DNA of 64,000 bases from a virus (Duplodnaviria; Caudoviricetes). The stretch is from IMG/VR virus record IMGVR_UViG_3300034061_003631, positions 11-64,010 of that record. One strand, given 5' to 3'. The notes under the pieces were generated by a model, which saw only the letters and a list, made by a program, of their open reading frames with translations, did not search any database and was not told the origin of the DNA. Both the position numbers and the translations under genes were made by a program. This document shows positions 664-64,000 of the stretch, one piece after another (the stretch's first letter is position 1; each line of letters begins with the position of its first letter).

Positions 664-676
664 ATTATACTTTGTA

Positions 677-1621: not shown

Positions 1622-1622
1622 C

Positions 1623-4647: not shown

Positions 4648-5381
4648 TAATTTAGCTCACCGATAAAAATATTCAACTCATCAATATTTGGAGACTTGTG
4701 ATGCCACTCTGGATTATTCTCCATCACTTTAATGCCTTTACCTTTTATGGTATTTGCAAGAATAAAAATTGGCTTGTCTTCTGATGTATGAGAAAAAGCA
4801 TCAATCAATTGTCGTTGATCGTGTCCGTCTACTTCAAGACAGTCCCAATTAAATGATTTAAATTTTTCTTTTACATCATCAATTTTTACTGCTCTATCTC
4901 CTGATCTGTTGTGGTCCAATACGCAATAAAGATTGTTTAGTTTGTGGTGTGATGCTAGCATAGCAGATTCCCATATAGAACCTTCGTTCGCTTCTCCATC
5001 ACCTATTAAGACAAAAACTTTATTATCTTTATTTTGTATCTTATATCCCATTGCCATTCCAACAGCTATTGGTAATCCGTGGCCCAACGAACCAGTTGAT
5101 GTCTCTACCGATTCTGTTTTATTGCACGGATGGCCACCAAGTTCTGAATTAAAATCACAAAAACTGTTTATATCGCATTTCAGTAAATTAAAATTATTTA
5201 ATACAACATAAAGCCCTAAAGATGCATGCCCCTTGGACAATATAAATTTATTGTTTGTGTTTGTAATAAATTTACCGTAAAGAACATATAAAATATCAAG
5301 AATAGAAAGAGAGCTTCCTATATGCCCCTCTTTCTTTTTATGAGCTAGCTCTAATATCTTTTGTATCAGGTGTTTAGTCAT
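4647..5381 (-). CDS. Transketolase-like protein, N-terminal TPP-binding subunit
   Basis: GHIGSSLS, LSKGHA, TGSLGHG, GDGEANEG, TIKGKG. Confidence 0.92.
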   Translation of the reverse strand: MTKHLIQKILELAHKKKEGHIGSSLSILDILYVLYGKFITNTNNKFILSKGHASLGLYVVLNNFNLLKCDINSFCDFNSELGGHPCNKTESVETSTGSLGHGLPIAVGMAMGYKIQNKDNKVFVLIGDGEANEGSIWESAMLASHHKLNNLYCVLDHNRSGDRAVKIDDVKEKFKSFNWDCLEVDGHDQRQLIDAFSHTSEDKPIFILANTIKGKGIKVMENNPEWHHKSPNIDELNIFIGELN

Positions 5382-5737
5382 TTTGTATCAAAATTTTTAT
5401 AAACTTTTACACTGTCTTCACGCAATGTTTTTCCATCTTTGATCGCCGCATCAACCATTTTATTAATTGCCTGAACATACATTGGCCTCTTTTGCTTGAA
5501 GCAAATATCAACCTTTCTTTTTATATCAGCCAATTCAGAATCTGTTTTAGCGATACCGGCCATATCTTCTAAGAACCATGTTCTGATGTGAAGAATCACT
5601 AGTTTTTCAATTACTTCTCCTAAATTATCAGAAACGGCTAATTCCAAAGGCAATTCTGGTATCCCGTCTTTTTTATCTAATACTTCTTTTACCCTGTGAG
5701 TGATTAATTCCTCTATTTTATTTGCTATATCAATCAT
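5378..5737 (-). CDS. Hypothetical helical protein (DUF4254-like)
   Basis: GEVIEKLVILHIRTWFLED pattern; overlaps its operon neighbours. Confidence 0.55.
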   Translation of the reverse strand: MIDIANKIEELITHRVKEVLDKKDGIPELPLELAVSDNLGEVIEKLVILHIRTWFLEDMAGIAKTDSELADIKRKVDICFKQKRPMYVQAINKMVDAAIKDGKTLREDSVKVYKNFDTK

Positions 5738-6630
5738 AATATCTCCATAATTTCATTTTGAATTATATTACATATGTGTCCATAATCAAAATTATTTGAC
5801 CAAATTTGTTTTGCTTGTTCTTTTGGCAAATGTTCTGGTAATGCCCATTTACCATCAACCATATAATTTGTAAAAGAAATAAAAGTTTTATTTGGATTAT
5901 ATAAGGTTTCTTTGTTATGACAAAAACAAAATGGCCCGCTTCCTTTACCAATTATAATATTGGATTTGGACCCAAGATAAGCAATTTCATTTAAATCACC
6001 ACCATTGGTTTTTATAAAATCCGAAGTATAAAACACATTTGGAAGTTGTATTTTTGATCTATTATCCGTCAATATAAATGCGATATTTTTATTTTTGGGT
6101 GCTAGCGAAAGTATAATATTATCTAAATTTATATCTGCTGATTGTCCAGATAATACTGGCCCATTTGATATTAAAACATACTTATCGAATATATTATTTT
6201 TTAAAAATTCATCAACATGTGTAACATCAAAAAAAGACCAATCTATTTCTGGAATATAAAAATTTATATCCTCTATGGAAATATTTAAACATCTATAAAT
6301 ATTTTGAAATTTTTTATAATTTGTATTTAATGAACAACCCATCATCATTTCTAAATGTTTACCATTTGAAGATCCGACCCAGGTGTTTACAAATAATATT
6401 TTATTTTCATTATCTACAAAAAATTCATTAGAATTAAAATTAAATAAATTATTATTTTTAAAAATAATGTTTTTTATATCTTTTACTATTTTTAGTGAGC
6501 TTCCCAGTGGCAAATAATATTCAGAATGAATATTTATTTTTTTTTGTAAATCTTTTACAAATTCTCTAGAGTAATGAACATCGCCATTGTGCCCACCATT
6601 ATAAAATATCAATGTATTAATTTCACTCAT
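5734..6630 (-). CDS. Putative GT-B glycosyltransferase-like protein
   Basis: HNGDVHY near N-terminus and IIGKGSGP near C-terminus resemble GT9-like proteins; operon context. Confidence 0.5.
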   Translation of the reverse strand: MSEINTLIFYNGGHNGDVHYSREFVKDLQKKINIHSEYYLPLGSSLKIVKDIKNIIFKNNNLFNFNSNEFFVDNENKILFVNTWVGSSNGKHLEMMMGCSLNTNYKKFQNIYRCLNISIEDINFYIPEIDWSFFDVTHVDEFLKNNIFDKYVLISNGPVLSGQSADINLDNIILSLAPKNKNIAFILTDNRSKIQLPNVFYTSDFIKTNGGDLNEIAYLGSKSNIIIGKGSGPFCFCHNKETLYNPNKTFISFTNYMVDGKWALPEHLPKEQAKQIWSNNFDYGHICNIIQNEIMEIL

Positions 6631-6632
6631 AA

Positions 6633-7262
6633 TTATTTTTCAAAAATAAATATCCCACATCCATTCCACCAACCGTTTGAATCTTCATATCCTTGAAATG
6701 AAATATGAGAATGAATTTTTAATTTTAAATCATTAATTGCTCTTATAGTCCCATATTGTACATCTGTCCAAGTCCAGTCATCAACCATATAAATAAAAGA
6801 ATTTGCCATAGAAGGGTAATAATACTTTAATGCCAAATAATGATCTTCTTCTTTATGATCACCATCATAAAAGTACACGTCAATATCTTTCATGTTTTGT
6901 TTTTCAAAATCTATTTTAAAACAATCTGAATCGATCAAATTAACAGGACATTTTAAATTTAAATTCCAATTATTTAAAAAATCATCTTTTGGTGATCCAA
7001 ATTGAGAAAAATTATCTATAACCCAATGGTTTAATTTATTTTCATTTCCATTTAAAGCTGCTATTACAGTAGATCCATGCCACACACCAATTTCTACATA
7101 ATTTTTTACAATATCTCTTGATAACAATCTGTTAACAAATTTTTTATATTCTTTTCCAGAAAACCCTTTAATATTAAAAATTTGATCAGAAATATTATAT
7201 TGATTTTCATTATTTAATGCATAAAAAACTGAATTTTTTAAGTCGTTTATTCTATTATTCAT
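6633..7262 (-). CDS. Class I SAM-dependent methyltransferase (Methyltransf_24-like)
   Basis: YVEIGVWHGST, FYDGDH, VDDW. Confidence 0.85.
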   Translation of the reverse strand: MNNRINDLKNSVFYALNNENQYNISDQIFNIKGFSGKEYKKFVNRLLSRDIVKNYVEIGVWHGSTVIAALNGNENKLNHWVIDNFSQFGSPKDDFLNNWNLNLKCPVNLIDSDCFKIDFEKQNMKDIDVYFYDGDHKEEDHYLALKYYYPSMANSFIYMVDDWTWTDVQYGTIRAINDLKLKIHSHISFQGYEDSNGWWNGCGIFIFEK

Positions 7263-7287
7263 TATTATTTTCCTTTATATTAAAAAA

Positions 7288-8055
7288 TCATCTAAACTGT
7301 ATATGAGTATCTATTTGCTCGCAATCTATCTCAGGCTTAATTATTCTTACATAGGTTGAAACATTGCTGCTGGTAAATATCATTTTGTCACATTTAGATA
7401 ATGCTATTCCTTCTTTAAAAATATCAATAGCTAATTTATCTTTGTCTTCAAAATTGCAAAATGGTATTGTAACATCAGTGCTACTTCGTGTAATATTTTC
7501 ATTTATAAAAAGTTTATCTCCATATTTTTTTCTAAATGAATCTACGATTTTATATTCATCCGTAGCCAAAAAAACATTATTATATTTTCCAGTTTCTAAA
7601 TTTTTATCTATTTTTTCAAAATAATATTCATCTGGTAAAATATCACCATGTATTGCGTGGTCTGTTCTTCTTACATGCACACCCAAGGTGTTTGACTTGA
7701 ATGGAACTATTTCTGATAAATGATTAAAAATTGGATTTGCGAAGTAGTTACACCGTTTTAATGCATCATTTACTTTTATAATTTTTTCTATTGGAGTTAT
7801 TGGAGTATAGTATTGGTGACTAAGATCAAAAACACTTAGTGTCTTTGACCACTGTTCTTCTGTCGGTGGAACAGTTTGTTTAAATATAAATTTATCAAAA
7901 AGATTTTCATTTACATTATTTTGGTAGGTCTGTGCTTTCCATATAAAATAAAAACTGTTTATATTATTTTCATACAGATGCAATAAGCTGGCTGCTATGA
8001 GATTAAAACACGATAATAATCCACCAGTCCTTCTTTCTATTAAAAGATAAGCCAT
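7288..8055 (-). CDS. NodZ/O-fucosyltransferase-like glycosyltransferase
   Basis: LGVHVRRTD, FLATD, LSKCD...SSNVS motifs. Confidence 0.75.
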   Translation of the reverse strand: MAYLLIERRTGGLLSCFNLIAASLLHLYENNINSFYFIWKAQTYQNNVNENLFDKFIFKQTVPPTEEQWSKTLSVFDLSHQYYTPITPIEKIIKVNDALKRCNYFANPIFNHLSEIVPFKSNTLGVHVRRTDHAIHGDILPDEYYFEKIDKNLETGKYNNVFLATDEYKIVDSFRKKYGDKLFINENITRSSTDVTIPFCNFEDKDKLAIDIFKEGIALSKCDKMIFTSSNVSTYVRIIKPEIDCEQIDTHIQFR

Positions 8056-8056
8056 A

Positions 8057-8815
8057 TTACTCCTTTACCTGCAATACCATTTTATTAAATGATTTAAAAG
8101 TTTTAAAAGATCCACTGTGTGTATATGATGTAAAATACGTTTCTTCTTCTAAACCAAAACATCTATCCAATTTAATTGGAGCGTGTATCGGCATTATTTT
8201 ATTTTGACACAGTTTTGTAATCATACAATCATTTGGACCAACATAACCATTCTCTTCTATATAGTCACACATTAACTGGGCTCCAGCCCTAGTCAACAAA
8301 TATGCAGCCAATCCCTCACACAATAAAGGCAACTGTGCTTTGTACTCAATCAGATTATCATTTTTTTGTTCAACAAATGGTTGTCTATATAAAAATTGTT
8401 TAGATTGGTTGTGTGCGGTAACATTTTGAAGATTTATAAAATACAAATCATCACAAATTAATGATTCAAAAAATTCTATATTTGCATTTGGTTTTGCATC
8501 ATCTTCGCAAATTAAAATACTTAAATCGTTTGTATTTAAAAAAGCTTTCCAAAGTTTATAGTGGGCTATATAAGCAGCAATCTCTCCAAATCTGATCCAA
8601 TTTCTATTCGTATTTTCTAATAGTTTATCCTCATTAATTTTTATTTTATTATTTTCAAATAAAATATAATGAGTACCATTTTCTTCAATAAATGAACATT
8701 CATTTAAAGCTACACCGCTTTTAAATTCAAAATTAATATTATATTCATTGAAAGATTTGGTTATTTTTTCTTGTCTTTCTTTAGCTTCTGGTAATGTAAT
8801 TATTTGAACTTTCAT
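8057..8815 (-). CDS. Glycosyltransferase family 25
   Basis: GEIAAYIAHYKLW, LICEDDA, AYLLTRAGA. Confidence 0.82.
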   Translation of the reverse strand: MKVQIITLPEAKERQEKITKSFNEYNINFEFKSGVALNECSFIEENGTHYILFENNKIKINEDKLLENTNRNWIRFGEIAAYIAHYKLWKAFLNTNDLSILICEDDAKPNANIEFFESLICDDLYFINLQNVTAHNQSKQFLYRQPFVEQKNDNLIEYKAQLPLLCEGLAAYLLTRAGAQLMCDYIEENGYVGPNDCMITKLCQNKIMPIHAPIKLDRCFGLEEETYFTSYTHSGSFKTFKSFNKMVLQVKE

Positions 8816-9678
8816 AATGAAATTGTTTGTTTAATTTGATTTTTTATTTGCTCATATTTTTCATTTATATTATAATGAAAAATTGGACTATTATGAATAG
8901 TTTGATATAAACTTTCATCATTGTCTACCATTTTTACGTATTCCAAAACATCATGTATCGAATTAAAATTATTTACATAAATAAAACTGTTTGGATTAAA
9001 ATCTTTTAATACATATTCCGATCCCCAATAAATTGGTATGCAGCCTGATGTTTTTGCTTGTAAAATTTTTTCAGTAACATAACCCAATTTATTAGTATTT
9101 TCATATGCCATGCAAAATTTATAAGGTGAAATTACGTAATATTTTTTTAATTGATTTCTTTCGTGATCCCCATTTCCAAAAGGTAATCCAAAACCATCTG
9201 TTTTTTTATATGTGTTTAAGGTTTGCCAAAATTCAATTCTATTTTTATGCACTGCAGAAAATGGTGTTATACAAAAACTTGTTTTTGGTGTATTATACCA
9301 TTCATTATTTTGCAAATTGTTTACATTAACTGGAAGTATAGGATTTTGATTAGATACTAGATTATATCGATTTATATAGATCATCCACAAAGGAAGTCTT
9401 ATATTACCTCTATTTAAATCTGTTGGATCAAAAGTAAAATGATATTCAGCAGTATCATAAAATGGATCTTTTGGTTCTGCTATGTGTGATATTAATTTTG
9501 TTTTTGATCTATCTAAATTTGGTGGTACTAAATTTTCTCCAATCAAACACAAATTAGATTCGTAAGGATTTGTTGTATAACTAAAATCTTTACCATAAAT
9601 ATCTTGAAATAAAGATTTAAAAAAGTTATCTTCGTAATTAAAATCTGGCCAAAATCCGTATATTGATAATTTAATCAT
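8812..9678 (-). CDS. Glycosyltransferase family 10 (alpha-1,3/4-fucosyltransferase-like)
   Basis: YKFCMAYEN...GYVTEKI...GCIPIYWG. Confidence 0.9.
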   Translation of the reverse strand: MIKLSIYGFWPDFNYEDNFFKSLFQDIYGKDFSYTTNPYESNLCLIGENLVPPNLDRSKTKLISHIAEPKDPFYDTAEYHFTFDPTDLNRGNIRLPLWMIYINRYNLVSNQNPILPVNVNNLQNNEWYNTPKTSFCITPFSAVHKNRIEFWQTLNTYKKTDGFGLPFGNGDHERNQLKKYYVISPYKFCMAYENTNKLGYVTEKILQAKTSGCIPIYWGSEYVLKDFNPNSFIYVNNFNSIHDVLEYVKMVDNDESLYQTIHNSPIFHYNINEKYEQIKNQIKQTISL

Positions 9679-10492
9679 TTGCTATGCTATTAAAAATATA
9701 ATCATCAGCTGTAGTAAGATTGATAACTTTTTCAAAATTATTTTTTACGTATGGTAAACATTCTTGATATAATTCTGGTGTAAGGTTATCAAATGTTTCT
9801 AGATCGTCAATAAAAATAATACCTCTTGAATCAAAATCCTCTTCTATTGATCTGTCACCATAATAAATGGGAACCGTTCCTGTGGCAAAACAATCTGTTA
9901 TTTTTTCAGTATAATATTTTGGATAAATGCTATTTTCGATTACTATGGAAAACATATAATCTTTTAGACCATCAATTTTATCTGGAAGATATCTATAATC
10001 TCTGCCAAAAATATGATCTTGATATTTTGGATTGTTTTTTAGTTTTTCAAATAGCTCCATTCGTTTAATATGGCCAGAAGTAAATTGTTTAAAACTTGTA
10101 ATATAAGAACATAACTTATTTTTTTCGTATACTTTTGGCTCTTTTATCCACGGCATGTTTGATGCTGGTGGATTGTATTGAAAAAAATTAGGATCAATGT
10201 TTATTACTCGTCTATCGTTGGTAAATATTTTTTTATAACGTAGTTTTAAAACATCTTTATTTGATGTTATACCCATTAAAATAGATGATATAATTTCCGA
10301 CGATTCCCCCAGCCAACCATATTTTGGCCCAGTGTATCCATCATTTAAATATCTAAAAATAGCATCGTCAAAATATACAACAGGTGCATTTTGTTCTGGA
10401 TATTTGTTGAATACCCATTGAAATGTTTTTGGTGGATAATTTAAACAAGAATGTGTAGTAAAAGCGTTAGTAAAAATATTCAACGTATTCAT
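9671..10492 (-). CDS. Glycosyltransferase family 10-like
   Basis: YMFSIVIEN...YYTEKITDCFATGTVPIYYG. Confidence 0.85.
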   Translation of the reverse strand: MNTLNIFTNAFTTHSCLNYPPKTFQWVFNKYPEQNAPVVYFDDAIFRYLNDGYTGPKYGWLGESSEIISSILMGITSNKDVLKLRYKKIFTNDRRVINIDPNFFQYNPPASNMPWIKEPKVYEKNKLCSYITSFKQFTSGHIKRMELFEKLKNNPKYQDHIFGRDYRYLPDKIDGLKDYMFSIVIENSIYPKYYTEKITDCFATGTVPIYYGDRSIEEDFDSRGIIFIDDLETFDNLTPELYQECLPYVKNNFEKVINLTTADDYIFNSIAND

Positions 10493-11274
10493 ATAATCAC
10501 CCAGTCTTTACAATATATATCAGACCATTTTTGAATGTTGGTTTTTTCTCCAAACCAAGATGCGGGTGATATTACTTTATTGGTATTTGATAGCCATGCA
10601 CCCCACCAACTAAAAGTACTATTTCCTATAATGTGATAGTCACAAAGACTCATTAAACACATATCTGTTTTTTCATCAAGATTTTGACCTAAGTTTTTAT
10701 TTCTTCCATTATTTTTTAAAACATCGTAAACTTCTAATGGTGTATCACTAAAAATTACATATGGTATATCTTTAGGTAAAAAGTTTAAAGCATTTAAATA
10801 ATAGTCTTCTTTGCATATTGGATGATGTCCTGCCAATAATTTAAAATCTCCAATTCTTACATGAATTGCTATCAAAGGGTCTTTAATTTTTTTTCTTTTT
10901 TCTAAAGCTTCGTCATATACATTATCTTTAAATGTAAATTCTTTTTTAATATCTTCTCTGTAATCTGAAAAATATTTTTCACTTTGAAAATAACCTCTTA
11001 TTTCCGTATTATCTTTTACATTAAAAACTTCTTCATTGTAATCCCAGCTAGGGGCTTCATATAAATATGAAGGTAAAAAATTAGAACAATCTTTTGCACT
11101 TAAATTTTTAAAATATTCTGGTAATGTAAAATTATAATATGGATTTGTGTGTTTATTTTTGTAAGGTACCCCAAATTCATAATTATTTTTTTTAGCTACT
11201 GAATATAAACAGGCATATTGAAACATTTGATTTCCAGTTCTGCCGTGTACACCTAAAGTTTTAAATGATATCAT
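10489..11274 (-). CDS. Glycosyltransferase family 11 (alpha-1,2-fucosyl/colitosyltransferase-like)
   Basis: GRTGNQMFQYA, GYFQSEKYF, HVRIGD, NSTFSWWGAWL. Confidence 0.92.
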   Translation of the reverse strand: MISFKTLGVHGRTGNQMFQYACLYSVAKKNNYEFGVPYKNKHTNPYYNFTLPEYFKNLSAKDCSNFLPSYLYEAPSWDYNEEVFNVKDNTEIRGYFQSEKYFSDYREDIKKEFTFKDNVYDEALEKRKKIKDPLIAIHVRIGDFKLLAGHHPICKEDYYLNALNFLPKDIPYVIFSDTPLEVYDVLKNNGRNKNLGQNLDEKTDMCLMSLCDYHIIGNSTFSWWGAWLSNTNKVISPASWFGEKTNIQKWSDIYCKDWVII

Positions 11275-11906
11275 TGAAATGTTGTATTTCTGTTTTCTAG
11301 AGGGCGATCAGTAAGCATTTGCCATTTATTGGAACTTTCCCTGTCGTCACATTGATAAATTAAAGGACTATTTGGTGTATAAACTTTAAACTGGGTTTGT
11401 ATTCCGGCTGTTCCAACATCCCAAGGTTTATTCAAAGTATAAAGACAAAACTTCCCAACTTCTGACATAGCTTGCCTATAATTTTGTGTTACATATAAAA
11501 TAGCATGTGCTGCTAATATGCCGCCAATTCTTAAATAATTTTCATCATGTTTACATGATCCATAGTAAATATTGCCATGTGAAATCCCAAGATAAACACC
11601 ATCAGCATCATCTGGAATTTCTATAACAGGATTAAAATTGTCTGCAAACTCTACGTCATCTTCCAAAATGAGAAGTGGAGTAGAATACTTTGCGTCATCT
11701 AAAATTTCAATATGAGACATTCCACACCCTCTAAAATGGGCAATACTTTTATCTGTATTGGGGGGAGGTGGAATTACAATTCCTGGTTTTCTGTGTGTAT
11801 TTTTAAAACCAAATTTTTGAAATCGTTGTTCCATAGTTTCAGCATTTTTCTTTGCTGAATCTAAATTTATCCAGACTACTGGAATTTCACGCAAATCAAT
11901 AATCAT
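11271..11906 (-). CDS. GT25-like glycosyltransferase
   Basis: WINLD, GCGMSH, LILEDD; GAAAGGA upstream of ATG. Confidence 0.75.
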   Translation of the reverse strand: MIIDLREIPVVWINLDSAKKNAETMEQRFQKFGFKNTHRKPGIVIPPPPNTDKSIAHFRGCGMSHIEILDDAKYSTPLLILEDDVEFADNFNPVIEIPDDADGVYLGISHGNIYYGSCKHDENYLRIGGILAAHAILYVTQNYRQAMSEVGKFCLYTLNKPWDVGTAGIQTQFKVYTPNSPLIYQCDDRESSNKWQMLTDRPLENRNTTFQ

Positions 11907-11922
11907 TTTAGTCCTTTCAACA

Positions 11923-11950
11923 ATTATAGATCACTCTAAAGAAATGTCAA
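11923..11950 (-). promoter_or_regulatory. Sigma70-like promoter of the glycan operon
   Basis: TTGACA-N16-TATAAT on the minus strand, upstream of the first operon gene. Confidence 0.7.
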
Positions 11951-11960
11951 GATTATTTAT

Positions 11961-11988
11961 TTGACTTTACTCTAGAGTACTTTAATAT
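11961..11988 (+). promoter_or_regulatory. Sigma70-like promoter of uvsY
   Basis: TTGACT-N16-TAATAT, divergent from the glycan operon promoter. Confidence 0.5.
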
Positions 11989-12000
11989 ACATCTTAAAAG

Positions 12001-15201: not shown

Positions 15202-15744
15202 TTATTGAGAGGGTGTTCCGCTACCATAGTAACAAGGACTATTTCCGGAAGTATTTGGAAATTGGTAAATACAACTTCCAGTCATATCTTTATTATAACG
15301 AGTTGCTAAAAATTCTGGCCAACGATAATTTATAATTTCTTGCCAGCCTCTATGATATCCTACAGGACCATAAGGTGGAGTAGTGTTTCCTTCAGTATAT
15401 CTTCTATACAAATCAGCATATGTTATCATTCTAGTGGTCTCTGGAATATAATTCCAATTTCGCGCAAGAAAAACCCATTGATTTAACCATTGTATCCATT
15501 GTTGATAATGTGGATGATTTTGCGGAAGAGTATCTGACAAATTAAAATTAAAAAACCAAAGCATGCTGCGATTTACATCTAAGGGACTTTGTGCTTCACC
15601 AGTTGTCAAAGGATTTAATGAAGATCCCAATTGAATGTTTCTATAATTTGGATCCCAATCATAATTTGTTCCCGCCACCGATTGACCGGGAGCCAAACTG
15701 AATTCCATTTCAGATTCGATTAAATATTTTTTAAAACCATTCAT
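15202..15744 (-). CDS. Hypothetical Trp/Pro-rich protein with capsid-targeting-like N-terminus
   Basis: Starts MNGFKKYLIE; preceded by ATAAATA late-promoter motif. Confidence 0.65.
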   Translation of the reverse strand: MNGFKKYLIESEMEFSLAPGQSVAGTNYDWDPNYRNIQLGSSLNPLTTGEAQSPLDVNRSMLWFFNFNLSDTLPQNHPHYQQWIQWLNQWVFLARNWNYIPETTRMITYADLYRRYTEGNTTPPYGPVGYHRGWQEIINYRWPEFLATRYNKDMTGSCIYQFPNTSGNSPCYYGSGTPSQ

Positions 15745-57468: not shown

Positions 57469-58014
57469 ATGGACTACCTAACAAATCATTACAAAAATTT
57501 ATCGGAACAACTGCAAAACAAAATAAACATTTTGCAAAAAGTTTTATTAGAATCTGATATGCCACCAGTTGGTCCAGACATAGAGGGTATTGGTGATACT
57601 GCACCAATAACATCCAGAAAAGAATTTCAAGATAATGGTTTGTGGATCACACCAACTAACTGGCAAGGTCTTTATAATCAATGGCAAAAATTAAGAAACG
57701 GACCAGTTCCAAACTGGTTCCTTGCCGAATATTGGGGAGGGCTTCAATCAAATGGTGGGACTTGGGGATCAGTAGCAGATGCTTGGGACAATTTCTGCGC
57801 ACAATTGTTGGGAGCAATAAGCAGAGCTGGTCAATACAATAATCCAGAAATATACTGGGACATTCAAAGCCAGTGGCAGTATTATACAGCCCAAGCAAAT
57901 AATGGTCAACCACTACCATTCCCCGTACGACACGGTGGACGCTACACTCCACAAATTGGCATGCACCAAGTAGGCGGAAGAATAAATTATATTGAACCAC
58001 ATCCAAATATGTGA
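57469..58014 (+). CDS. Leader-cargo array member (MDYLT leader)
   Basis: MDYLTNHYKNLSEQLQNKINILQKVLLE. Confidence 0.78.
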   Translation: MDYLTNHYKNLSEQLQNKINILQKVLLESDMPPVGPDIEGIGDTAPITSRKEFQDNGLWITPTNWQGLYNQWQKLRNGPVPNWFLAEYWGGLQSNGGTWGSVADAWDNFCAQLLGAISRAGQYNNPEIYWDIQSQWQYYTAQANNGQPLPFPVRHGGRYTPQIGMHQVGGRINYIEPHPNM

Positions 58015-58096: not shown

Positions 58097-58633
58097 ATCT
58101 ATCTAAATATTCTTATGGATTATTTGACAAACTATTACAAAAATCTCTGCGAGCAACTTCAAAATAAACTAAATTATCTGGAACAAATGATCGCAGAGGC
58201 CAGACGGGGAACCGTCATGGTAGATGTAGATGACATCGAACGCGACGAGGGAGGTGACAGTATCATCGTCGGCAGACTCGCATCAGGCAAGGGTGCCAAA
58301 ACCGAAAGAACGATCACCTTCTACCCACAAAAAGAGCATGACATGGATGACTACCGCAATGCAGCCAAAATCGGCGCAGAGCCAATGGAAATTCGTTCAA
58401 ACGAGATCATGCACGAACCAAGGGAAAGAGGACACAATGTACGTGGCGCAGGCGCAAAGAGAGTAAAGAAAGAAATCGCACAGCACGGCGCAGAACTCAA
58501 GAAGCCAATGAGCGAACGCGGCGAAATCAGCTTCGACGCAAGAAACGCCCGTCGCCAAGCAAACAGATAATTTTTATACGAATAAATCTATCTAAATATT
58601 CTCATGGATTATTTGACAAACTATTACAAAAAT
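58097..58633 (+). repeat. 48-nt direct repeat (late promoter plus leader start) at 58097-58144 and 58586-58633
   Basis: ATCTATCTAAATATTCTYATGGATTATTTGACAAACTATTACAAAAAT, one mismatch between copies. Confidence 0.9.
58115..58570 (+). CDS. Leader-cargo array member (MDYLT leader)
   Basis: MDYLTNYYKNLCEQLQNKLNYLEQMIAE; cargo DNA more GC-rich than the leader. Confidence 0.78.
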   Translation: MDYLTNYYKNLCEQLQNKLNYLEQMIAEARRGTVMVDVDDIERDEGGDSIIVGRLASGKGAKTERTITFYPQKEHDMDDYRNAAKIGAEPMEIRSNEIMHEPRERGHNVRGAGAKRVKKEIAQHGAELKKPMSERGEISFDARNARRQANR

Positions 58634-59005
58634 TTATGTGAACAATTACAACATAAAGTGAATAAGCTTTCTTTTACAAGAAAATTGTTAAATGAAAGTG
58701 ATACCCCCACCCAATTTCCAGTTCAAGATAAACCAGGCGGTCCTTTGTATGTGCCCGGGAATCCTTATTGGGAACCAGCTCGGCCACCAATTCGGCCATC
58801 AGTTTGGCCACAAGATTGGCGACATCCTGGCGGAATAATTGATCATGAATACCCGACTCTGCCTACTCTGCCTCCTTACCCTGTCTGGGAACATGATAGT
58901 GACCCCCCTCCAGGTTGGGATGGATGGTGGCCCGATGCCCCACCCGGTGATCCAAGAAGTATTCCACCTGATACTTGGCCTCGTAAACCCCCCGCTGTAG
59001 GATAA
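58604..59005 (+). CDS. Leader-cargo array member (MDYLT leader), Pro/Trp-rich cargo
   Basis: MDYLTNYYKNLCEQLQHKVNKLSFTRKLLNE. Confidence 0.78.
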   Translation: MDYLTNYYKNLCEQLQHKVNKLSFTRKLLNESDTPTQFPVQDKPGGPLYVPGNPYWEPARPPIRPSVWPQDWRHPGGIIDHEYPTLPTLPPYPVWEHDSDPPPGWDGWWPDAPPGDPRSIPPDTWPRKPPAVG

Positions 59006-59034
59006 CATAATACTTTAAAATTTTTCGAATAAAC

Positions 59035-59068
59035 TTTTGGGCTCCTTCCGGGGGCCCAAAATTTTTTT
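59035..59068 (+). terminator. Intrinsic terminator closing the array
   Basis: TTTTGGGCTCC-TTCC-GGGGGCCCAAAA followed by T7. Confidence 0.75.
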
Positions 59069-59269
59069 AGGGCATACCATGTATTTTAAGGTTTGGGGTG
59101 GAGGGGGGTGGCCAAAAAATTTTTAGACCATCAAGGATATTTGAAAAAATTTGAGAAAATTTGAGAGGGACGGGGAGCTAGCCGTTTTTATCGGACGCCG
59201 CCAGATGGGACCCAAATTACTACTCGGACACCGCTAAAATAACTAAAATAATTTTTTCAAATAACTTTG

Positions 59270-59304
59270 AAAACAAAGATGCCCCCGCCTTCGGCGGGGG
59301 CATC
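59270..59304 (-). terminator. Intrinsic terminator of the minus-strand early gene
   Basis: GATGCCCCCGC-CTTCG-GCGGGGGCATC, followed by TTTGTTTT on the minus strand. Confidence 0.75.
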
Positions 59305-59317
59305 TGGTGGGCTGGGG

Positions 59318-59461
59318 TTACTGGCCCCAGTACCAGTCCCAGTAGGTGTCCTCCTCTGGGGCCTCGGCGTATTCCCTTTCTTCGTCCGGATTCGCGTTGC
59401 GCTTGGCGAGACGAATCTCAACGGGGCGGGTGGTTTCTTCGATGTGGGTGGTGCTGTCCAT
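59318..59461 (-). CDS. Small leaderless early protein (47 aa)
   Basis: TTGACA-N17-TATCAT-N6-ATG; MDSTTHIEETTRPVEIRL...WDWYWGQ. Confidence 0.65.
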   Translation of the reverse strand: MDSTTHIEETTRPVEIRLAKRNANPDEEREYAEAPEEDTYWDWYWGQ

Positions 59462-59467
59462 ACGCGT

Positions 59468-59496
59468 ATGATACCAGATACCTGCGTGTATGTCAA
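59468..59496 (-). promoter_or_regulatory. Early sigma70-type promoter
   Basis: TTGACA-N17-TATCAT. Confidence 0.8.
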
Positions 59497-59558
59497 CCCT
59501 CAAAGTAAAACACCACCCAAATTTTTGGGTGGTGTGGCTAAGGGGTAGGCGGTGGGCT

Positions 59559-59885
59559 TTACATCTCGCCCCATCCCGCGCTCGCTAGCCAGTCGTTGTC
59601 TGCGTCCCAGTCCTCGCGGCTCATCCGGCTAGCCGCATCGCTGAACGCTTGGTTGTCGGCATCGCGCTCCGCGTCATCCTGCGCCTTGCGCTCCTCGCCG
59701 TACCCGGCGATCTCCCATCGGTTCTCACGGGAACCCGTGGGCTTGGCCTCGCGCTTCGCCTCGCGCTCCCGCTCCTCCTGCTCCTCGCAGGAGGGGCACG
59801 GGCGATCATCGTAGGCGTACTCCGGGCGGTGGCACTGGCAGGGGAAGTGTTCGTGTTCGTGGTTGTGGGTGGTGCTGTTGTGCAT
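59559..59885 (-). CDS. Leaderless early protein with His/Cys metal-binding N-terminus
   Basis: MHNSTTHNHEHEHFPCQCH...RPCPSC; ATG 6 nt after the -10 box. Confidence 0.7.
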   Translation of the reverse strand: MHNSTTHNHEHEHFPCQCHRPEYAYDDRPCPSCEEQEEREREAKREAKPTGSRENRWEIAGYGEERKAQDDAERDADNQAFSDAASRMSREDWDADNDWLASAGWGEM

Positions 59886-59891
59886 GGCGGT

Positions 59892-59920
59892 ATGATACCA
59901 TGCCTCGCCTTCCTTGTCAA
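59892..59920 (-). promoter_or_regulatory. Early sigma70-type promoter
   Basis: TTGACA-N17-TATCAT. Confidence 0.8.
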
Positions 59921-59957
59921 GCCCTTCGTAGAATATTTTTTTCTTTGTTCCTACCCC

Positions 59958-59986
59958 TTGACAGCGTAGGCGGAGTCTGGTACAAT
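59958..59986 (+). promoter_or_regulatory. Early sigma70-type promoter
   Basis: TTGACA-N17-TACAAT. Confidence 0.85.
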
Positions 59987-59992
59987 CCACCC

Positions 59993-60187
59993 ATGAGCAC
60001 CACTCTCCGCATCGCTTCCATCGTCTCCGTTCTCTGCGTCATCCTCTCCGCGTTCCTTGCCTTCGGGCTTGCCTACAACGGCGACTACATCCGCGCCACG
60101 GTCTGCCTTGCCTTCTGCGGCTTTGGTGTTCTGTTGTGGCGGCTCACCGACATGGCGGACGAAGAGTACTACCGGGGTATGAAATAA
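59993..60187 (+). CDS. Leaderless small membrane protein (two predicted TM segments)
   Basis: MSTTLRIASIVSVLCVILSAFLAFGLAY...TVCLAFCGFGVLLW. Confidence 0.7.
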   Translation: MSTTLRIASIVSVLCVILSAFLAFGLAYNGDYIRATVCLAFCGFGVLLWRLTDMADEEYYRGMK

Positions 60188-60339
60188 CTGGGTGGTGCCA
60201 GTAACAGCCGAAGAGGATTCGTTCCCTGCCCCGATTCGTTCGGGGCTAGGTTGTTTTAAGCTACTATCAGCGTGGGAGGGCCACGCTGATAGTTGTTACC
60301 GGACGCGAAGAAATATTAGAATATTCTCGCCGCTGGGGG

Positions 60340-60368
60340 TTGACTGGACGGGCGGCGTCTGGTACAAT
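60340..60368 (+). promoter_or_regulatory. Early sigma70-type promoter
   Basis: TTGACT-N17-TACAAT. Confidence 0.85.
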
Positions 60369-60374
60369 TCGGGC

Positions 60375-60938
60375 ATGAACAGCACCACCACCCACCGTTA
60401 CCTCACCGTCCGCAACCGCGCCACCGAATCTTTCATCGGGCTTCTCGCCCAGGCTACGCTCTTCGACCTCCACGCTGCCGAGCGTTGGTACTCCGAGGCG
60501 CAGGGCTTCGCTAACTCGCTGCGCCCGATGACCGGATGGAACATGGAAGTCGCCGCGTCCGTTGTCTCCGCGTTCTCGCCCCGCGTTACTTGGGCGCACA
60601 ACAAGGCAAAGGCGACGCAGTACGCGCAGGGGATCGCCCCGAAGGGTCTTCGCTCCCATGTCGCTGCGGCGGATCGCTGCATCGTGGAAGGCTTCAACGG
60701 TCTGCGCGGTCTGAAGACGAATGCGTTCGCCCGTGCTATCGCGGGTGATCCTAACGCGGTCGTGGTGGATGTGTGGATGTGCCGCGCTGCGGGTCTGTGC
60801 AAGGACGCGCCGAACGCGACCGAGTACCGTGCCATCGCGGACGCGATCACCGCCATCGCGGGTACGCCGACCGTGAACATGGCACCTGCCACGCTTCAGG
60901 CTCTGCTGTGGATCATCGTCCGGGGCAAGGCGGACTAA
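60375..60938 (+). CDS. Leaderless early protein, DUF7178-like (HhH/glycosylase-like fold suspected)
   Basis: RWY...SAFSPRVTWAHN...GLKTNAF...VVVDVWMCRA...LQALLWI. Confidence 0.6.
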   Translation: MNSTTTHRYLTVRNRATESFIGLLAQATLFDLHAAERWYSEAQGFANSLRPMTGWNMEVAASVVSAFSPRVTWAHNKAKATQYAQGIAPKGLRSHVAAADRCIVEGFNGLRGLKTNAFARAIAGDPNAVVVDVWMCRAAGLCKDAPNATEYRAIADAITAIAGTPTVNMAPATLQALLWIIVRGKAD

Positions 60939-61095
60939 GGGCGGAGGCTGGGAAATAACCGAAAAGGATTCGTCCCTGCCCCGATTCGTTCGGGGCTAGG
61001 TTATTATTGGACAACTATCAAATTTGGCTTTAAGCGGCCAAATTTGATAGTAGACGGGACGGACGGATTATTTTTTATTTTTTCCACCCTACCCC

Positions 61096-61124
61096 TTGAC
61101 AGGACGCCACCTGCGCGGTACAAT
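61096..61124 (+). promoter_or_regulatory. Early sigma70-type promoter
   Basis: TTGACA-N17-TACAAT. Confidence 0.85.
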
Positions 61125-61130
61125 ACGCGC

Positions 61131-61406
61131 ATGAGCACCTCCTCCACCATCGTCCTTGACACCCCCGCACAGATCAACGCCTTCCGCGCCCACACCCTCC
61201 GCATCGGTCTGGAGTCCGAGATCAAGCACAACATGCGCCTGACCGGAAAGGCTCCTTCCTGCTACAGCATCATCAAGCGGGAACTGGGCTTCAAGGGCAA
61301 CAAGGTTCGCGTCTACGCCCAGTACGTCCTCTGGATGGGCGAGAAGGGTCTGCTCGACATCACCCCCACGGATCGGGCGACCCTGACGGCGTGGGCAGTC
61401 AAGTGA
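61131..61406 (+). CDS. Leaderless early hypothetical protein
   Basis: MSTSSTIVLDTPAQINAFR...SCYSIIKRELGFKGNK. Confidence 0.72.
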   Translation: MSTSSTIVLDTPAQINAFRAHTLRIGLESEIKHNMRLTGKAPSCYSIIKRELGFKGNKVRVYAQYVLWMGEKGLLDITPTDRATLTAWAVK

Positions 61407-61451
61407 CCAGGAGGGGGAGGAGAGAATAAAAAAAATATTCTCTCCTCCCCC

Positions 61452-61480
61452 TTGACTTTCGCACCCCAAACTGATACAAT
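61452..61480 (+). promoter_or_regulatory. Early sigma70-type promoter
   Basis: TTGACT-N17-TACAAT. Confidence 0.85.
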
Positions 61481-61486
61481 ACCGAC

Positions 61487-61711
61487 ATGAGCACCACCAA
61501 GACCGTCAAGATGATCCCCAGCGGAGTTTCCGACCGCTACGCCTACGCCTACGGCTACCTCTCCGGCTGCATGAGGAATGTGGAGTACGCCGTGCAGCAG
61601 ATGCGCCGCCGCGATGACCCCGAGTGGGTGGCATTGTGGATGCACGAAATTCAGCGCGAGATCGCCTCCTTCAAGGCAATGGACGACGCCCTCCACAACG
61701 AACACGACTAA
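61487..61711 (+). CDS. Leaderless early hypothetical protein
   Basis: MSTTKTV...YAYAYGYLSG. Confidence 0.72.
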   Translation: MSTTKTVKMIPSGVSDRYAYAYGYLSGCMRNVEYAVQQMRRRDDPEWVALWMHEIQREIASFKAMDDALHNEHD

Positions 61712-61783
61712 AGGGTGGTGCTAGGGGGGCGGATGACTTGTTGTCTCCGCCCTCCACCCGACCCCCAACAAGAAAGAAAAAAA

Positions 61784-62077
61784 ATGAACGCAACCGAATC
61801 ACTCGCGAAACTCATTCGTACGGCCCTCTCCAACGGGGAGACTGTGCGAGTCTCGTTCCTAAAGGTGGACGGCACCCTCGCCGTTGACCGTCAGATCACC
61901 CGGAACATGATCGTCATTCCAAAGGACAAGCACCCGAAGTTTGTCCGTGGTGAGAACCCCGACTACATCACCGGGTTCGACATCAAGAAGGGTGACTGGA
62001 TTCGCTTTCACAAGGACAATGTCCGCAGCTGCATGGAATTCAGCCGTGCCGCAGAAAACATGGCTTTTGCCTCTTGA
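61784..62077 (+). CDS. SH3/WYL-like (DUF2693-type) beta-barrel protein
   Basis: VRVSFLKVDGT...ITRNMIVIP...FDIKKGDWIRF; start at MNATES after an A-rich leader. Confidence 0.65.
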   Translation: MNATESLAKLIRTALSNGETVRVSFLKVDGTLAVDRQITRNMIVIPKDKHPKFVRGENPDYITGFDIKKGDWIRFHKDNVRSCMEFSRAAENMAFAS

Positions 62078-62102
62078 CACTCGCACCACAGTTCGGTACA
62101 AT
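62074..62102 (+). promoter_or_regulatory. Early sigma70-type promoter
   Basis: TTGACA-N17-TACAAT. Confidence 0.85.
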
Positions 62103-62108
62103 ACCGCC

Positions 62109-62462
62109 ATGAACAGCACTACCCCCAAGCGTCTGCCCATCGTTGATGACCTCGTTCGCTCCCTGATGGTCTGCGCGTCCACGATCAAGGAGATCAAGGA
62201 TCAGCCGGATGAGGTCAACTGCTCTCTCGCCTTCTGTGAGGTTGCCGTGAGCCTTCCTCCTGCTTGGTTCAGCCTCCCGGAGCGTCTGCTCATCGTGAGC
62301 GTGATTCAGGAACTCACGGGCAAGAACGCGATTGAGTTCATCGACAACCTAGACGATGACTCCATCTCGTACTACAACAAGTGCCGCAGTCCAAACGGAA
62401 AGGACATCAACGAGGTGGTGGAGCAGATTTTCATGGCTCACGCCGCTGCGTTCCCCAATTAA
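62109..62462 (+). CDS. Leaderless early hypothetical protein
   Basis: MNSTTPKRLPIVDDL; ATG 6 nt after the -10 box. Confidence 0.72.
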   Translation: MNSTTPKRLPIVDDLVRSLMVCASTIKEIKDQPDEVNCSLAFCEVAVSLPPAWFSLPERLLIVSVIQELTGKNAIEFIDNLDDDSISYYNKCRSPNGKDINEVVEQIFMAHAAAFPN

Positions 62463-62669
62463 ATACAGTCCCCGACCTTGACCGGATACTGGGTCGCAAA
62501 CTAGGGCGCGTTGCAAGGCGTTCTAGCACGAAAGGATGACTGTGCCTTTCAAAACCTCTGACCCGTCCCTCTTTAGGGCGGGTCATGTTTATTTGACAAC
62601 TATCAAATCGCGTTTTTTCCGCGATTTGATAGTAGCCCGGACAATCTGAAAAAATATTTGCTTTACCAC

Positions 62670-62698
62670 TTGACACCCACCGGACGGCATGATACAAT
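62670..62698 (+). promoter_or_regulatory. Early sigma70-type promoter
   Basis: TTGACA-N17-TACAAT. Confidence 0.85.
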
Positions 62699-62704
62699 CC
62701 GCGC

Positions 62705-62959
62705 ATGACCTACCTTCCTTACAACAGCGACCCCGGTGAATACGACAACGAAACTCTCCCCTACGCCGATGGCTACAGCGAGGAGGACTTCGTGGCAGAA
62801 CTGATGTCCGAGGGCTACTCCGAGGACGAGGCTCGTCGCATGGCGGGTGACTACGATGCCGATGACTACAGCGGCAGCGAGGTTGACCTTGATCGGGATG
62901 TCCCCGAGATGGATGACTTCGATTCCGAGGACTTCGTTGACGAGGAGGACTTCGGATGA
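62705..62959 (+). CDS. Leaderless highly acidic small protein
   Basis: About 31 of 84 residues are D/E, no Lys. Confidence 0.72.
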   Translation: MTYLPYNSDPGEYDNETLPYADGYSEEDFVAELMSEGYSEDEARRMAGDYDADDYSGSEVDLDRDVPEMDDFDSEDFVDEEDFG

Positions 62960-63264
62960 TCGTCAAGGTAGAAGCAGCGTTCCCTGGAACCGTGAACCGT
63001 GGATGGACTACCCGCAGGTACAAGAAGTGTACTGGGAGCCTCCTCCATGCTCTGTCTCTCGCCTTCCCTAACGATGCAAGCATGATCGTCACCCTTGAGG
63101 TGAACCACACCTCCGGAATCGACAACTTCATCTACATGGTGGAGTTTCCGGAGGGAGCCAGAAGGCAGCAGGTTGACTTCTTCATCCGCCTCGCAAAACA
63201 AGTTAAACATTTCTACGCCGTGGACTTGATTTCCGCCCCCGAACCTGCTACAATACCCGCATGA
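62956..63264 (+). CDS. Hypothetical protein
   Basis: ATGA overlap with the upstream gene. Confidence 0.55.
   Translation: MIVKVEAAFPGTVNRGWTTRRYKKCTGSLLHALSLAFPNDASMIVTLEVNHTSGIDNFIYMVEFPEGARRQQVDFFIRLAKQVKHFYAVDLISAPEPATIPA
63226..63254 (+). promoter_or_regulatory. Early sigma70-type promoter
   Basis: TTGATT-N17-TACAAT. Confidence 0.75.
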
Positions 63265-63506
63265 GCAAGCACCGCCCCAACAAGCCAACCACTTGTGACA
63301 TCTCCGATCTCCTGAACGAGATCTACGCATTCGTGACGGAGAATCCCCTGTGGTACGAGGACGAGGATAGCCTTCTCAAGATGGGAATGGCACTCGCAGC
63401 ACTCAAGGCAATCAGCCAACCGGAAGATGTCACGCAGGAGGAGTACGACTTCTGCATCACCCTGTTCAACACCTTCAACGAAAGCGTTCGGAGCAACAAT
63501 GAGTAA
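63261..63506 (+). CDS. Leaderless early hypothetical protein
   Basis: MSKHRPNKP...ENPLWYEDED; ATG 6 nt after the -10 box. Confidence 0.7.
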   Translation: MSKHRPNKPTTCDISDLLNEIYAFVTENPLWYEDEDSLLKMGMALAALKAISQPEDVTQEEYDFCITLFNTFNESVRSNNE

Positions 63507-63855
63507 CCCCACCAACAAGTTCGGCAACTTCTTCAACGATCCCAAGCCCGTGATGGGGACGATCAAGCCCAAGCCTGGGCAGATCCTTGAAGCCCTCTAC
63601 ACCGTGATGCTGATGGAGCCGCATTGGTACAAGCGGACTGACCTGCGGATGGTCGTTCTCTCCTCTCTCAAGGGTCTGGCGTTGCTCGTTCAGGAGGAGA
63701 AGGACAAGGGCATCGAACACCCGATCAACTCTGCCGAGGCTGCGTTCCTCTGCATTCTTGGCGACCTCGCACTCGCAACCCGAGAGCAGTACGCCACGGA
63801 CGAGGAGCGGGAGATGTTCCCGATAGACGAGGAAAACGAGGAAGAAGGAGATTGA
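63499..63855 (+). CDS. Hypothetical protein
   Basis: Start taken at MSNPTNKF (63499), overlapping the upstream stop; acidic C-terminus. Confidence 0.65.
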   Translation: MSNPTNKFGNFFNDPKPVMGTIKPKPGQILEALYTVMLMEPHWYKRTDLRMVVLSSLKGLALLVQEEKDKGIEHPINSAEAAFLCILGDLALATREQYATDEEREMFPIDEENEEEGD

Positions 63856-63880
63856 CAAACCCGCGCCCATCGGTTACAAT
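63852..63880 (+). promoter_or_regulatory. Early sigma70-type promoter
   Basis: TTGACA-N17-TACAAT, not followed by an ATG at +7. Confidence 0.8.
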
Positions 63881-63886
63881 GGGCAA

Positions 63887-64000
63887 AGCCAATGAGCCTG
63901 ACCGTAATCCCAGTTGGCGCCCCATAGGGGCAACGCTTCCCGCAAGGGAGAAACTGGTAGGCGCGGCGAATAGCAGTCAAGTCCCGACTGCCGTATGCAA
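63887..64000 (+). ncRNA. Putative structured non-coding RNA (may continue beyond the window)
   Basis: Own promoter; CCAGTT/AACTGG closes GCCCC-ATA-GGGGC and CTTCCC-GCAA-GGGAG hairpins; then GCAGTC/GACTGC hairpin; only an 11-codon ORF. Confidence 0.45.

Follow-up and report, generated by a model that had tools for sequence, protein, structure and literature searches.

In the sections of two papers that describe it, the PeSL is a repeated motif of the hyperplastic regions of T4-like phages, in which a sigma-70-like early promoter is combined with an AT-rich region upstream and a terminating stem-loop, and each lineage is reported to have a stem consensus of its own (Arbiol et al., 2010, PMC2839356; Comeau et al., 2014, PMC4122927). 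The same sections link PeSLs to insertions and deletions, replacements and mini-circles (PMC2839356, PMC4122927), and the legend to figure 2 of the first paper has the PeSL of phage phi1 drawn as ending in a Shine-Dalgarno sequence and a start codon (PMC2839356). T4-like phages adapt via their variable regions, the wiring and shuffling of which are known from few cultured phages. Here we describe three intergenic hairpins in a stretch of 64,000 nucleotides (nt) from virus record IMGVR_UViG_3300034061_003631 (positions 11 to 64,010; hereafter the window), together with a module of which they form a part. The module sits between some of the small early genes in a group of uncultured lake-water T4-type phages, and is more elaborate than the described PeSLs. 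Our preferred reading, which we hold with moderate confidence, takes the hairpins as the stem-loop unit of a junction module, specific to the clade, that combines terminator and promoter and is a variant of the PeSL cassette; the interpretation given in an earlier note on this DNA was partly supported.

The three hairpins, all given on the plus strand, were confirmed in the window with the sequences and positions first reported. Copy 1 (60261-60295) has the left box CTACTATC at 60261-60268 and the variant right box GATAGTTG at 60288-60295, enclosing a stem GCGTGG/CCACGC and a GAGGG loop, with a T.T mismatch at the second stem position. Copies 2 (61012-61053) and 3 (62597-62635) each have the variant left box CAACTATC, the right box GATAGTAG and an A.A mismatch; the single mismatch that had been remarked on near the stem base is thus present in all three, two positions from the base. 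Stems measure 13-16 base pairs (bp) and loops 5-8 nt, and the outer letters of copy 1 are inverted relative to copies 2 and 3 (CTA..TTG versus CAA..TAG). The observation is real and non-random: ACTATCA-N(8-38)-TGATAGT had three matches in the 64 kilobases (kb) of the window and 0 in each of 100 dinucleotide-preserving shuffles, and single-strand folding gave -14.7 to -15.2 kcal/mol, against -2 to -3 in shuffles, with z-scores of -8.4 to -9.4 that 0 of 200 shuffles equalled on either strand, both strands folding equally well. Six of the 8-letter boxes found in the window fall within a 4.9-kb GC-rich island of small genes near its end, and two in the remaining 59 kb. What we say below of the functions of the module is read from sequence.

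The surroundings of the three copies are alike. Directly 5' of each lies another hairpin with a T-rich tail, which agrees with the claim that the copies follow a structured 3' element. Before copy 1 this is a conserved structured 3' element (60190-60256, plus strand) with a terminator-like hairpin at 60228-60246, reported by a terminator scan, and a T-rich tail; before copy 2 it is a second copy of that element (60945-61006, plus strand), the hairpin of which (60978-60996) has the same stem sequence as 60228-60246; and before copy 3 it is a terminator-like hairpin of 10 pairs with the tail TGTTTATTTG (62559-62595, plus strand), which the same scan placed at 62559-62585. On the 3' side, CGGAC occurs within 15 nt of each copy, as had been stated, and the distance to the next -35 box is 44, 42 and 34 nt for copies 1, 2 and 3, in line with the 35-45 nt first estimated. 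The spacer after copy 1 (60296-60339, plus strand) carries the motif GTTACCGGAC, within which GGAC is at 60301-60304, then an A/T-rich stretch, and reaches the -35; those after copy 2 (61054-61095, plus strand) and copy 3 (62636-62669, plus strand) carry GGAC at 61057-61060 and 61061-61064, and at 62639-62642, respectively, each followed by an A/T-rich stretch. The promoter after copy 1 (60340-60377, plus strand) reads TTGACT-17-TACAAT, then 6 nt, then the ATG (60375) of a DUF7178 gene (60375-60938), a leaderless layout. Those after copy 2 (61096-61133, plus strand) and copy 3 (62670-62707, plus strand) read TTGACA-17-TACAAT, and 6 nt further come the ATG of a 91-amino-acid gene (61131) and the ATG of an 84-amino-acid gene (62705).

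With the DUF7178 protein as query, 19 related IMG/VR loci were retrieved, and longer stretches of five of the records were added. With the census pattern C[TA]ACTATC ... GATAGT[AT]G, 59 box pairs were counted over the 20 loci, 17 of which carried at least one. Leaving out locus L139, a duplicate of G005, brings the total to 56 pairs, with 53 distinct elements among them (45 long and 8 short). The earlier note had named an absence of further copies as a refutation of its reading, and this does not apply, since such copies are numerous in the relatives. The whole 64,010-bp record of the window holds the same three ACTATCA/TGATAGT hairpins only. The usual, long form consists of CTACTATC, a hairpin starting at the ATC or TC of this box, GAT and often TTTTAT, a spacer of 10-35 nt and, last, (C)(T/G)GATAGTAG. 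The short forms are nine pairs, eight of them distinct, and comprise the three of the window, one at L123:5886 that is identical to window copy 1, two in L132 and three in G004. In the closest relative, L122, which is collinear with 60171-62319 of the window, the three orthologous places are occupied by long forms with hairpins unrelated to those of the window, including one with a T-run at the place of copy 2 (L122:6623-6689) and one at the place of copy 3 (L122:8131-8200). What the earlier note saw as hairpins with fixed ends is the compact variant of a broader module, and this variant is peculiar to the present genome and a few more.

The module occupies 3-7 junctions per island, and the gene content between elements differs among the 20 loci. 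Other island promoters follow directly after the previous gene or after a different hairpin, for example that at 61411-61454. Within a pair the boxes are 18-62 nt apart, and the -10 follows the right box at 51-97 nt if a single spurious call of 24 is set aside. Behind an ordinary terminator, G001 has boxes that repeat in the same direction and boxes that read CTACT-GAT-AGTAG with no hairpin; the paired form is missing from L140 and, in part, from G001. In the longer stretches of the five records, the 9-letter box string TGATAGTAG is found almost exclusively in the island. With a stricter pattern the family was recovered from more viral contigs of this type, alongside chance matches that lack a hairpin, and the pattern had 0 matches in 185,579 prokaryote genomes (one per species). 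A loose scan of viral contigs with AACTATCA-N-TGATAGTA gave at least 116 single matches in unrelated contigs, which were taken as chance and not used; a literature search with the 10-letter box strings returned unrelated primer-like matches only, among the matches listed. Single left boxes were also seen at the far end of the island in G003 (10598), G002 (16583) and G004 (15476-15494, two in tandem), where a conserved stretch with GGACAGGAT repeats follows and there is no right box. In G005 (L144), L129, L138 and L139, box-associated promoters have AATTCTACACACACTCC in place of TTGACA in their -35 region (five of five in G005), and these may be another promoter class.

Ends and interiors are conserved in different ways, as the earlier note had held. 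The 8-letter boxes are invariant in all 45 distinct long forms, and a hairpin abuts the left box in 53 of 53 distinct elements, with its start always inside the box and, in 35 of them, on position 6 or 7; the stem has exactly 12 pairs in 28/53. The interior is kept by pairing only: two gap-free alignments (A2 and A3) showed changes on both sides of the stem at 8/12 and 9/12 pairs, far above shuffled and slid controls, in 16 of the 53 distinct elements that were picked for a 12-bp stem, so that a value of "100% paired" is by selection. An alignment of mixed loop lengths made with MAFFT (A1) was discarded because it placed a gap inside the stem. G.U pairs are rare (17/666). A T-run, defined as at least four T in the 8 nt after the stem, was present in 23/45 long forms. 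After the right box, GGAC occurs 1.88 times per 60 nt, GTCC 0.05 times, and GGAC at promoter-only junctions 0.21 times; the longer TTAYNGGAC was found at 29/56 box junctions versus 0/90 promoter-only junctions. One variant box is present in 7/8 distinct short forms versus 0/45 long forms (p = 5e-8), a rule that avoidance of a long perfect palindrome or crowding of two binding sites might explain. The common CAAC/GTTG variant of the box breaks the pairing, and the letters beside the right box (CT-GATAGTAG or CG-GATAGTAG) are largely genome-specific. The invariance of the boxes, a variant that unpairs them, the position of the right box beyond the T-run and the occurrence of boxes without a hairpin argue that the boxes are read as DNA sequence, and not only as part of a stem.

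Comparison of related junctions showed that nucleotide-level mosaic boundaries fall exactly at the boxes. L126:5842 has both flanks in common with L129:5853 and G005:7014, with unrelated interiors between them, and the flanks are again common to L126:6706, L127:6933 and G004:6702, where G004 has a short form near-identical to its own copy at 5887. Between L128:5844 and L126/L127:5842 the interior and the right flank are common, and the sequences are unrelated outward from the left box. Window copy 1 and G004:8218 have the hairpin in common and neither flank. At the level of sequence, these comparisons indicate replacement of entire hairpin units, with the boxes on either side left intact. The short form might have arisen by deletion between the two CTGAT of an orthologous long form; we found no support for this, as hairpins at orthologous sites are unrelated, which replacement fits better than deletion. 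In a contig from lake-water run X1, which has 10 differences from the window in 714 nt, the five letters of the copy 1 loop (60276-60280) are reverse-complemented. The proposal that the element occurs in both orientations holds for the inverted outer letters of copy 1, but not in a simple way, since the relative at L137:8170 (the site of G004:8218) shares the interior and loop direction of copy 1 and has the outer letters swapped. The loop inversion and the boundaries at the boxes are signs of a function at the DNA level, as the earlier note had proposed, while the analogy with integron attC sites or REP sequences through which it had expressed this was unsupported. Contigs of several runs were also seen to break at hairpin 1, and no joint between the three hairpins was found in contigs of other runs. 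In RNA run X24, the contigs of which come from relatives that are 5-10% different, one contig passes from the conserved 3' element via the left box into a hairpin; contigs cannot show RNA ends, and nothing on termination was concluded from it.

Under the reading we prefer, the module would separate some of the transcription units of the GC-rich early-gene island. Its parts would follow one another as the terminator of the upstream gene, the box CTACTATC, a hairpin of about 12 bp based on the ATC of the box and often a T-run, and then a spacer, the inverted box GATAGTAG, same-strand GGAC/TTAYNGGAC repeats, an A/T-rich stretch and the near-consensus sigma-70 promoter of a leaderless gene. Judging from the forms with a T-run, the hairpin would stop or insulate upstream transcription. 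The boxes, the sequence of which is kept even where no hairpin stands between them, are most likely DNA recognition sites, presumably of a sequence-specific factor of phage or host origin acting at these promoters. The mosaic boundaries show that hairpin units and neighbouring genes have been exchanged between copies and genomes at these same sequences. Protein recognition and exchange are probably both roles of the boxes. In the window copies, which lack the T-run and the spacer, the boxes abut the hairpin, form the foot of the stem and lengthen it, and one of the two is of the CAAC/GTTG variant; with a terminator-like hairpin already upstream of each, these copies are probably weak as terminators.

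Several observations weigh against this reading. A T-run is present in 0/8 distinct short forms, the three of the window included (their tails, TGTTACCG, AGACGGGA and AGCCCGGA, have no T-run directly 3' of the hairpin), and 22/45 long forms have no clear one; the terminator scan omitted all three window copies. The variable distance of 51-97 nt from the right box to the -10 lacks the fixed phasing of a classical activator site, and the island proteins scanned yielded no recognisable DNA-binding protein. A plain terminator would not explain why the stem is uniformly 12 bp, why G.U pairs are so few or why the short forms follow the variant-box rule. PeSLs, as the cited sections describe them, close with a Shine-Dalgarno sequence, and their stem is often situated within the promoter, whereas here the genes are leaderless and the stem is upstream of the -35. 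Gene order gave a further point. The 300-nt flanks of each junction were compared with every other genome, using blastn, which misses diverged flanks, and they were kept adjacent in 172/573 cases (30%) at box junctions versus 218/752 (29%) at promoter-only junctions (p = 0.72). The boxes are therefore not special as gene-order breakpoints, a link that the earlier note had proposed to test; every junction type of the island is often broken.

A possible, though on balance doubtful, alternative is that the boxes and the GGAC/TTAYNGGAC repeats are purely an array of operators or upstream sites, binding a regulator that switches a subset of the early promoters, and that the hairpin is a neighbouring terminator with no link to them. 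The invariance of the boxes, together with a CAAC/GTTG variant that unpairs, speaks for it, as do the hairpin-less boxes and same-direction repeats of G001 and the place of the right box past the T-run, and thus in a non-transcribed spacer. The GGAC repeats are strictly same-strand and confined to box junctions, and the largely genome-specific choice between CT-GATAGTAG and CG-GATAGTAG fits as well. The tight join between box and hairpin, which begins inside the left box in every element and at position 6 or 7 in the majority, would be unexpected if the two were unrelated, and neither the spacing between boxes nor that to the -10 is constant; the island proteins scanned also offered no candidate for the binding protein. 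An operator like tetO, with half-sites CTATCA/TGATAG, was considered separately and rejected on account of the 18-62 nt spacing and of the conserved core CTACTATC, which is not a tetO half-site.

The unit of box, 12-bp hairpin and box could instead be self-propagating DNA, an unlikely but consequential idea. A phage factor would recognise the split palindrome CTACTATC|GATAGTAG and, via an extruded hairpin or template switching, would copy, flip and overwrite units between intergenic sites, driving the exchange of early genes. If true, this would be conversion guided by structure plus sequence in a lytic T4-type phage, somewhat attC-like with unrelated parts.

We consider it decidedly unlikely that the element acts at the RNA level on read-through transcripts, with the box and hairpin, or the two boxes paired, serving as an RNase III-like processing site, a stabilising 3' end or a nut-like signal for an RNA-binding factor of phage or host. 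The compensatory changes in the stem are strong, and transcripts of the upstream unit would carry the left box and hairpin in their 3' end. A protein with a WYL_2/Sm-like fold is encoded nearby (61784-62077; E = 1.9e-5, below the Pfam cut-off). In the nut sites of lambdoid phages, a conserved box of 8-9 nt (boxA) is followed by a hairpin with a free stem sequence (boxB), which the conserved 8-nt box directly 5' of the hairpin recalls. Unlike nut sites, the module is found at 3' ends, before promoters and not downstream of one, with a second, inverted box and in many copies, and we know of no N-like factor for it. In the 23 long forms with a T-run, the right box is beyond that run and conserved as much as the left; the scarcity of G.U pairs and the equal folding of both strands are better suited to a palindrome in DNA than to a signal on one strand of RNA. 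Boxes without a hairpin exist, and no Rfam family fits the element at E up to 1, a scan of 58500-64000 having given sub-threshold chance matches only.

A structure-recognised recombination site of the attC or REP kind, at which a dedicated recombinase or HUH nuclease moves cassettes via a folded strand, was the main proposal of the earlier note and appears highly improbable. The likeness to attC lies in the inverted conserved end motifs, the variable yet paired interior of variable length, the position between small genes and, in 7/8 distinct short forms, a constant unpaired position near the stem base. Interiors swapped between intact boxes, one hairpin found at two different junctions and the inverted loop in a close strain point the same way. 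The core consensus of attC is RYYYAAC/GTTRRRY, whereas the module ends in CTACTATC/GATAGTAG and has no such cores. An attC cassette has no promoter of its own and is read from a common one, whereas each gene here has its own. Most copies are long forms, which are free of mismatches and unpaired bases and enclose a T-run and a spacer, and gene-order breakpoints are not in excess over promoter-only junctions. Phage_integrase (PF00589), Y1_Tnp (PF01797) and Resolvase each had 0 matches in the five records, which are 31-76% complete, so that absence is unproven; controls were positive, in 14/14 genomes for Phage_integrase and in six genomes for Y1_Tnp. The tyrosine recombinase or HUH nuclease that the earlier note had proposed to look for was accordingly not found with these domains in the five incomplete records. 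Searches for a single-subunit RNA polymerase (PF00940) and endonuclease VII (PF02945) were silent in controls as well and so uninformative. With REP and BIME sequences the module shares short imperfect intergenic palindromes in both orientations, and the GTAG/CTAC tetranucleotide at the hairpin foot presumably resembles that of REP. REP/RAYT systems have many near-identical copies scattered along a bacterial chromosome; in contrast, the module occurs in few copies in one phage island, with unrelated interiors and no Y1 transposase in the records searched, and the arrangement is absent from the bacterial genomes searched.

Promoters of phage N4 have a 5-7 bp stem and a 3-nt loop and are read by the virion RNA polymerase, and T4-type phages are transcribed by host polymerase. 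That the hairpins are a cruciform or single-strand signal for DNA entry or for a hairpin-dependent polymerase of the N4 type, as had also been suggested, is barely plausible: palindromes with z-scores near -9 on both strands in a probably early region would suit it, but each element is followed by a consensus sigma-70 promoter, the 12-16 bp stems are far longer, and 3 to 7 copies are spread across the island and not placed at one entry end.

The phage itself is a T4-type myovirus, as indicated by Pfam matches in the window to a Gp23 capsid protein, Portal_T4, the large-terminase families Terminase_6N/6C, UvsW_N and a Gp6-like baseplate protein and by PHROGs matches to major head, portal and terminase. 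The DNA of 59200-64000 and a 1204-amino-acid protein had no match among 50,697 GenBank phages. GC content is 25-42% up to about 58 kb (genome about 32%) and 49%, 59% and 55% in the last three 2-kb bins, and the island of small genes (59100-64000) has 55-59% GC. A chimeric contig was considered and rejected, because relatives L143 and L145 have a GC-rich stretch of 10-12 kb flanked on both sides by AT-rich DNA, and because contigs of other lake-water runs bridge the island boundary (X3, piece 58907-59590; X1, piece 58695-59343). Such a sharp, conserved contrast inside one phage genome is unusual. Ten island proteins were scanned, of which eight had no Pfam family, one was DUF7178 and one was the weak WYL_2 match mentioned above. 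At the other end of the window, positions 1-12000 form a block of 25-33% GC with a DegT/DnrJ/EryC1-type aminotransferase (1623-2798, minus strand), and this may be a sugar-modification gene cluster.

Promoters are dense in the island, with 15 sigma-70-like sites in 5 kb against 1.7 expected. The layout TTGAC-N-TAnnnT-N-ATG is found in eight genes, with TTGACA-17-TACAAT and an ATG 6 nt after the -10, too close for a leader, and leaderless messages are predicted. Near-consensus promoters (TTGACA-17-TACAAT/TATCAT) were seen on the minus strand at 59496 and 59920 and on the plus strand at 59958, 60340, 61096, 61452, 62074 and 62670, and islands of relatives have 12-20 sites of the leaderless type. 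The perfect hairpin at 61411-61454, in which GGGGGAGGAGAGAATA pairs with TATTCTCTCCTCCCCC around an A-run loop, reaches as far as the -35 of the 61452 promoter and is a PeSL-like stem without boxes. The last promoter of the window (63852-63880) is followed by conserved non-coding sequence that is 94% identical to L122. Just downstream of the region that matches the end of the window, the islands of relatives (L141:5796-6619, L122:10185-10912, L143, L144 and L145) have tRNA genes for Lys-UUU, Leu-CAA, Arg-UCU and Ile-UAU; there are no tRNAs within the window. The GC-rich island together with tRNAs for codons ending in A or U suggests an AT-rich phage on a GC-richer host. Before the island, three neighbouring genes (57469-58014, 58115-58570 and 58604-59005) have the common N-terminus MDYLTNYYKNL, a family with several copies in 17 loci, and ATCTATCTAAATATTCT(T/C)ATG stands before two of the three; it resembles a T4-type late promoter and would again give a leaderless message.

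The conserved structured 3' element that precedes copies 1 and 2 is an observation in its own right. It is about 60 nt long, comes after a stop codon and is 94-98% identical between genomes in which the genes are about 75-80% identical. There are two copies in the window and one per relative (L122:5767-5853 and 10 other loci), and in an alignment of 13 copies one pair of the closing helix covaries, with A-U replaced by G-C in 4/13. It had no match in Rfam.

Among known systems, the module shares with intrinsic terminators a GC-containing hairpin after a gene and, in about half of the long forms, a T-run, and departs from them in its conserved flanking boxes, its uniform stem length and the many copies that have no T-run. 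The PeSL is closer. Both belong to T4-type phages and to a variable region of small genes that mostly lack an assigned function, in both a strong sigma-70-like promoter is joined to an AT-rich stretch before it and to a stem-loop, one that in the module may terminate, and both have a lineage-specific conserved stem sequence and lie at points of exchange between related genomes, in the module at the nucleotide level. Unlike the PeSL as described, the module has its stem-loop 34-44 nt upstream of the -35 and not within or beside the promoter boxes, brackets it with two invariant 8-bp inverted boxes, keeps the stem near a constant 12 bp and continues with same-strand GGAC/TTAYNGGAC repeats. It is present on a subset of the island promoters only (3-7 per genome), its genes are leaderless and without a Shine-Dalgarno sequence, and there is a gap of about 25% GC between its island and the remaining genome. 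A shared setting, but with boxes, stem length, stem position and repeats of its own, makes this a PeSL variant and not a plain member. If the boxes do bind a factor, they would offer a way into the control of early genes and into modular exchange among phages that are not yet growable. What the module adds to the described PeSLs is a set of invariant inverted boxes, a stem of fixed length, oriented GGAC repeats and a restriction to a subset of the early promoters.

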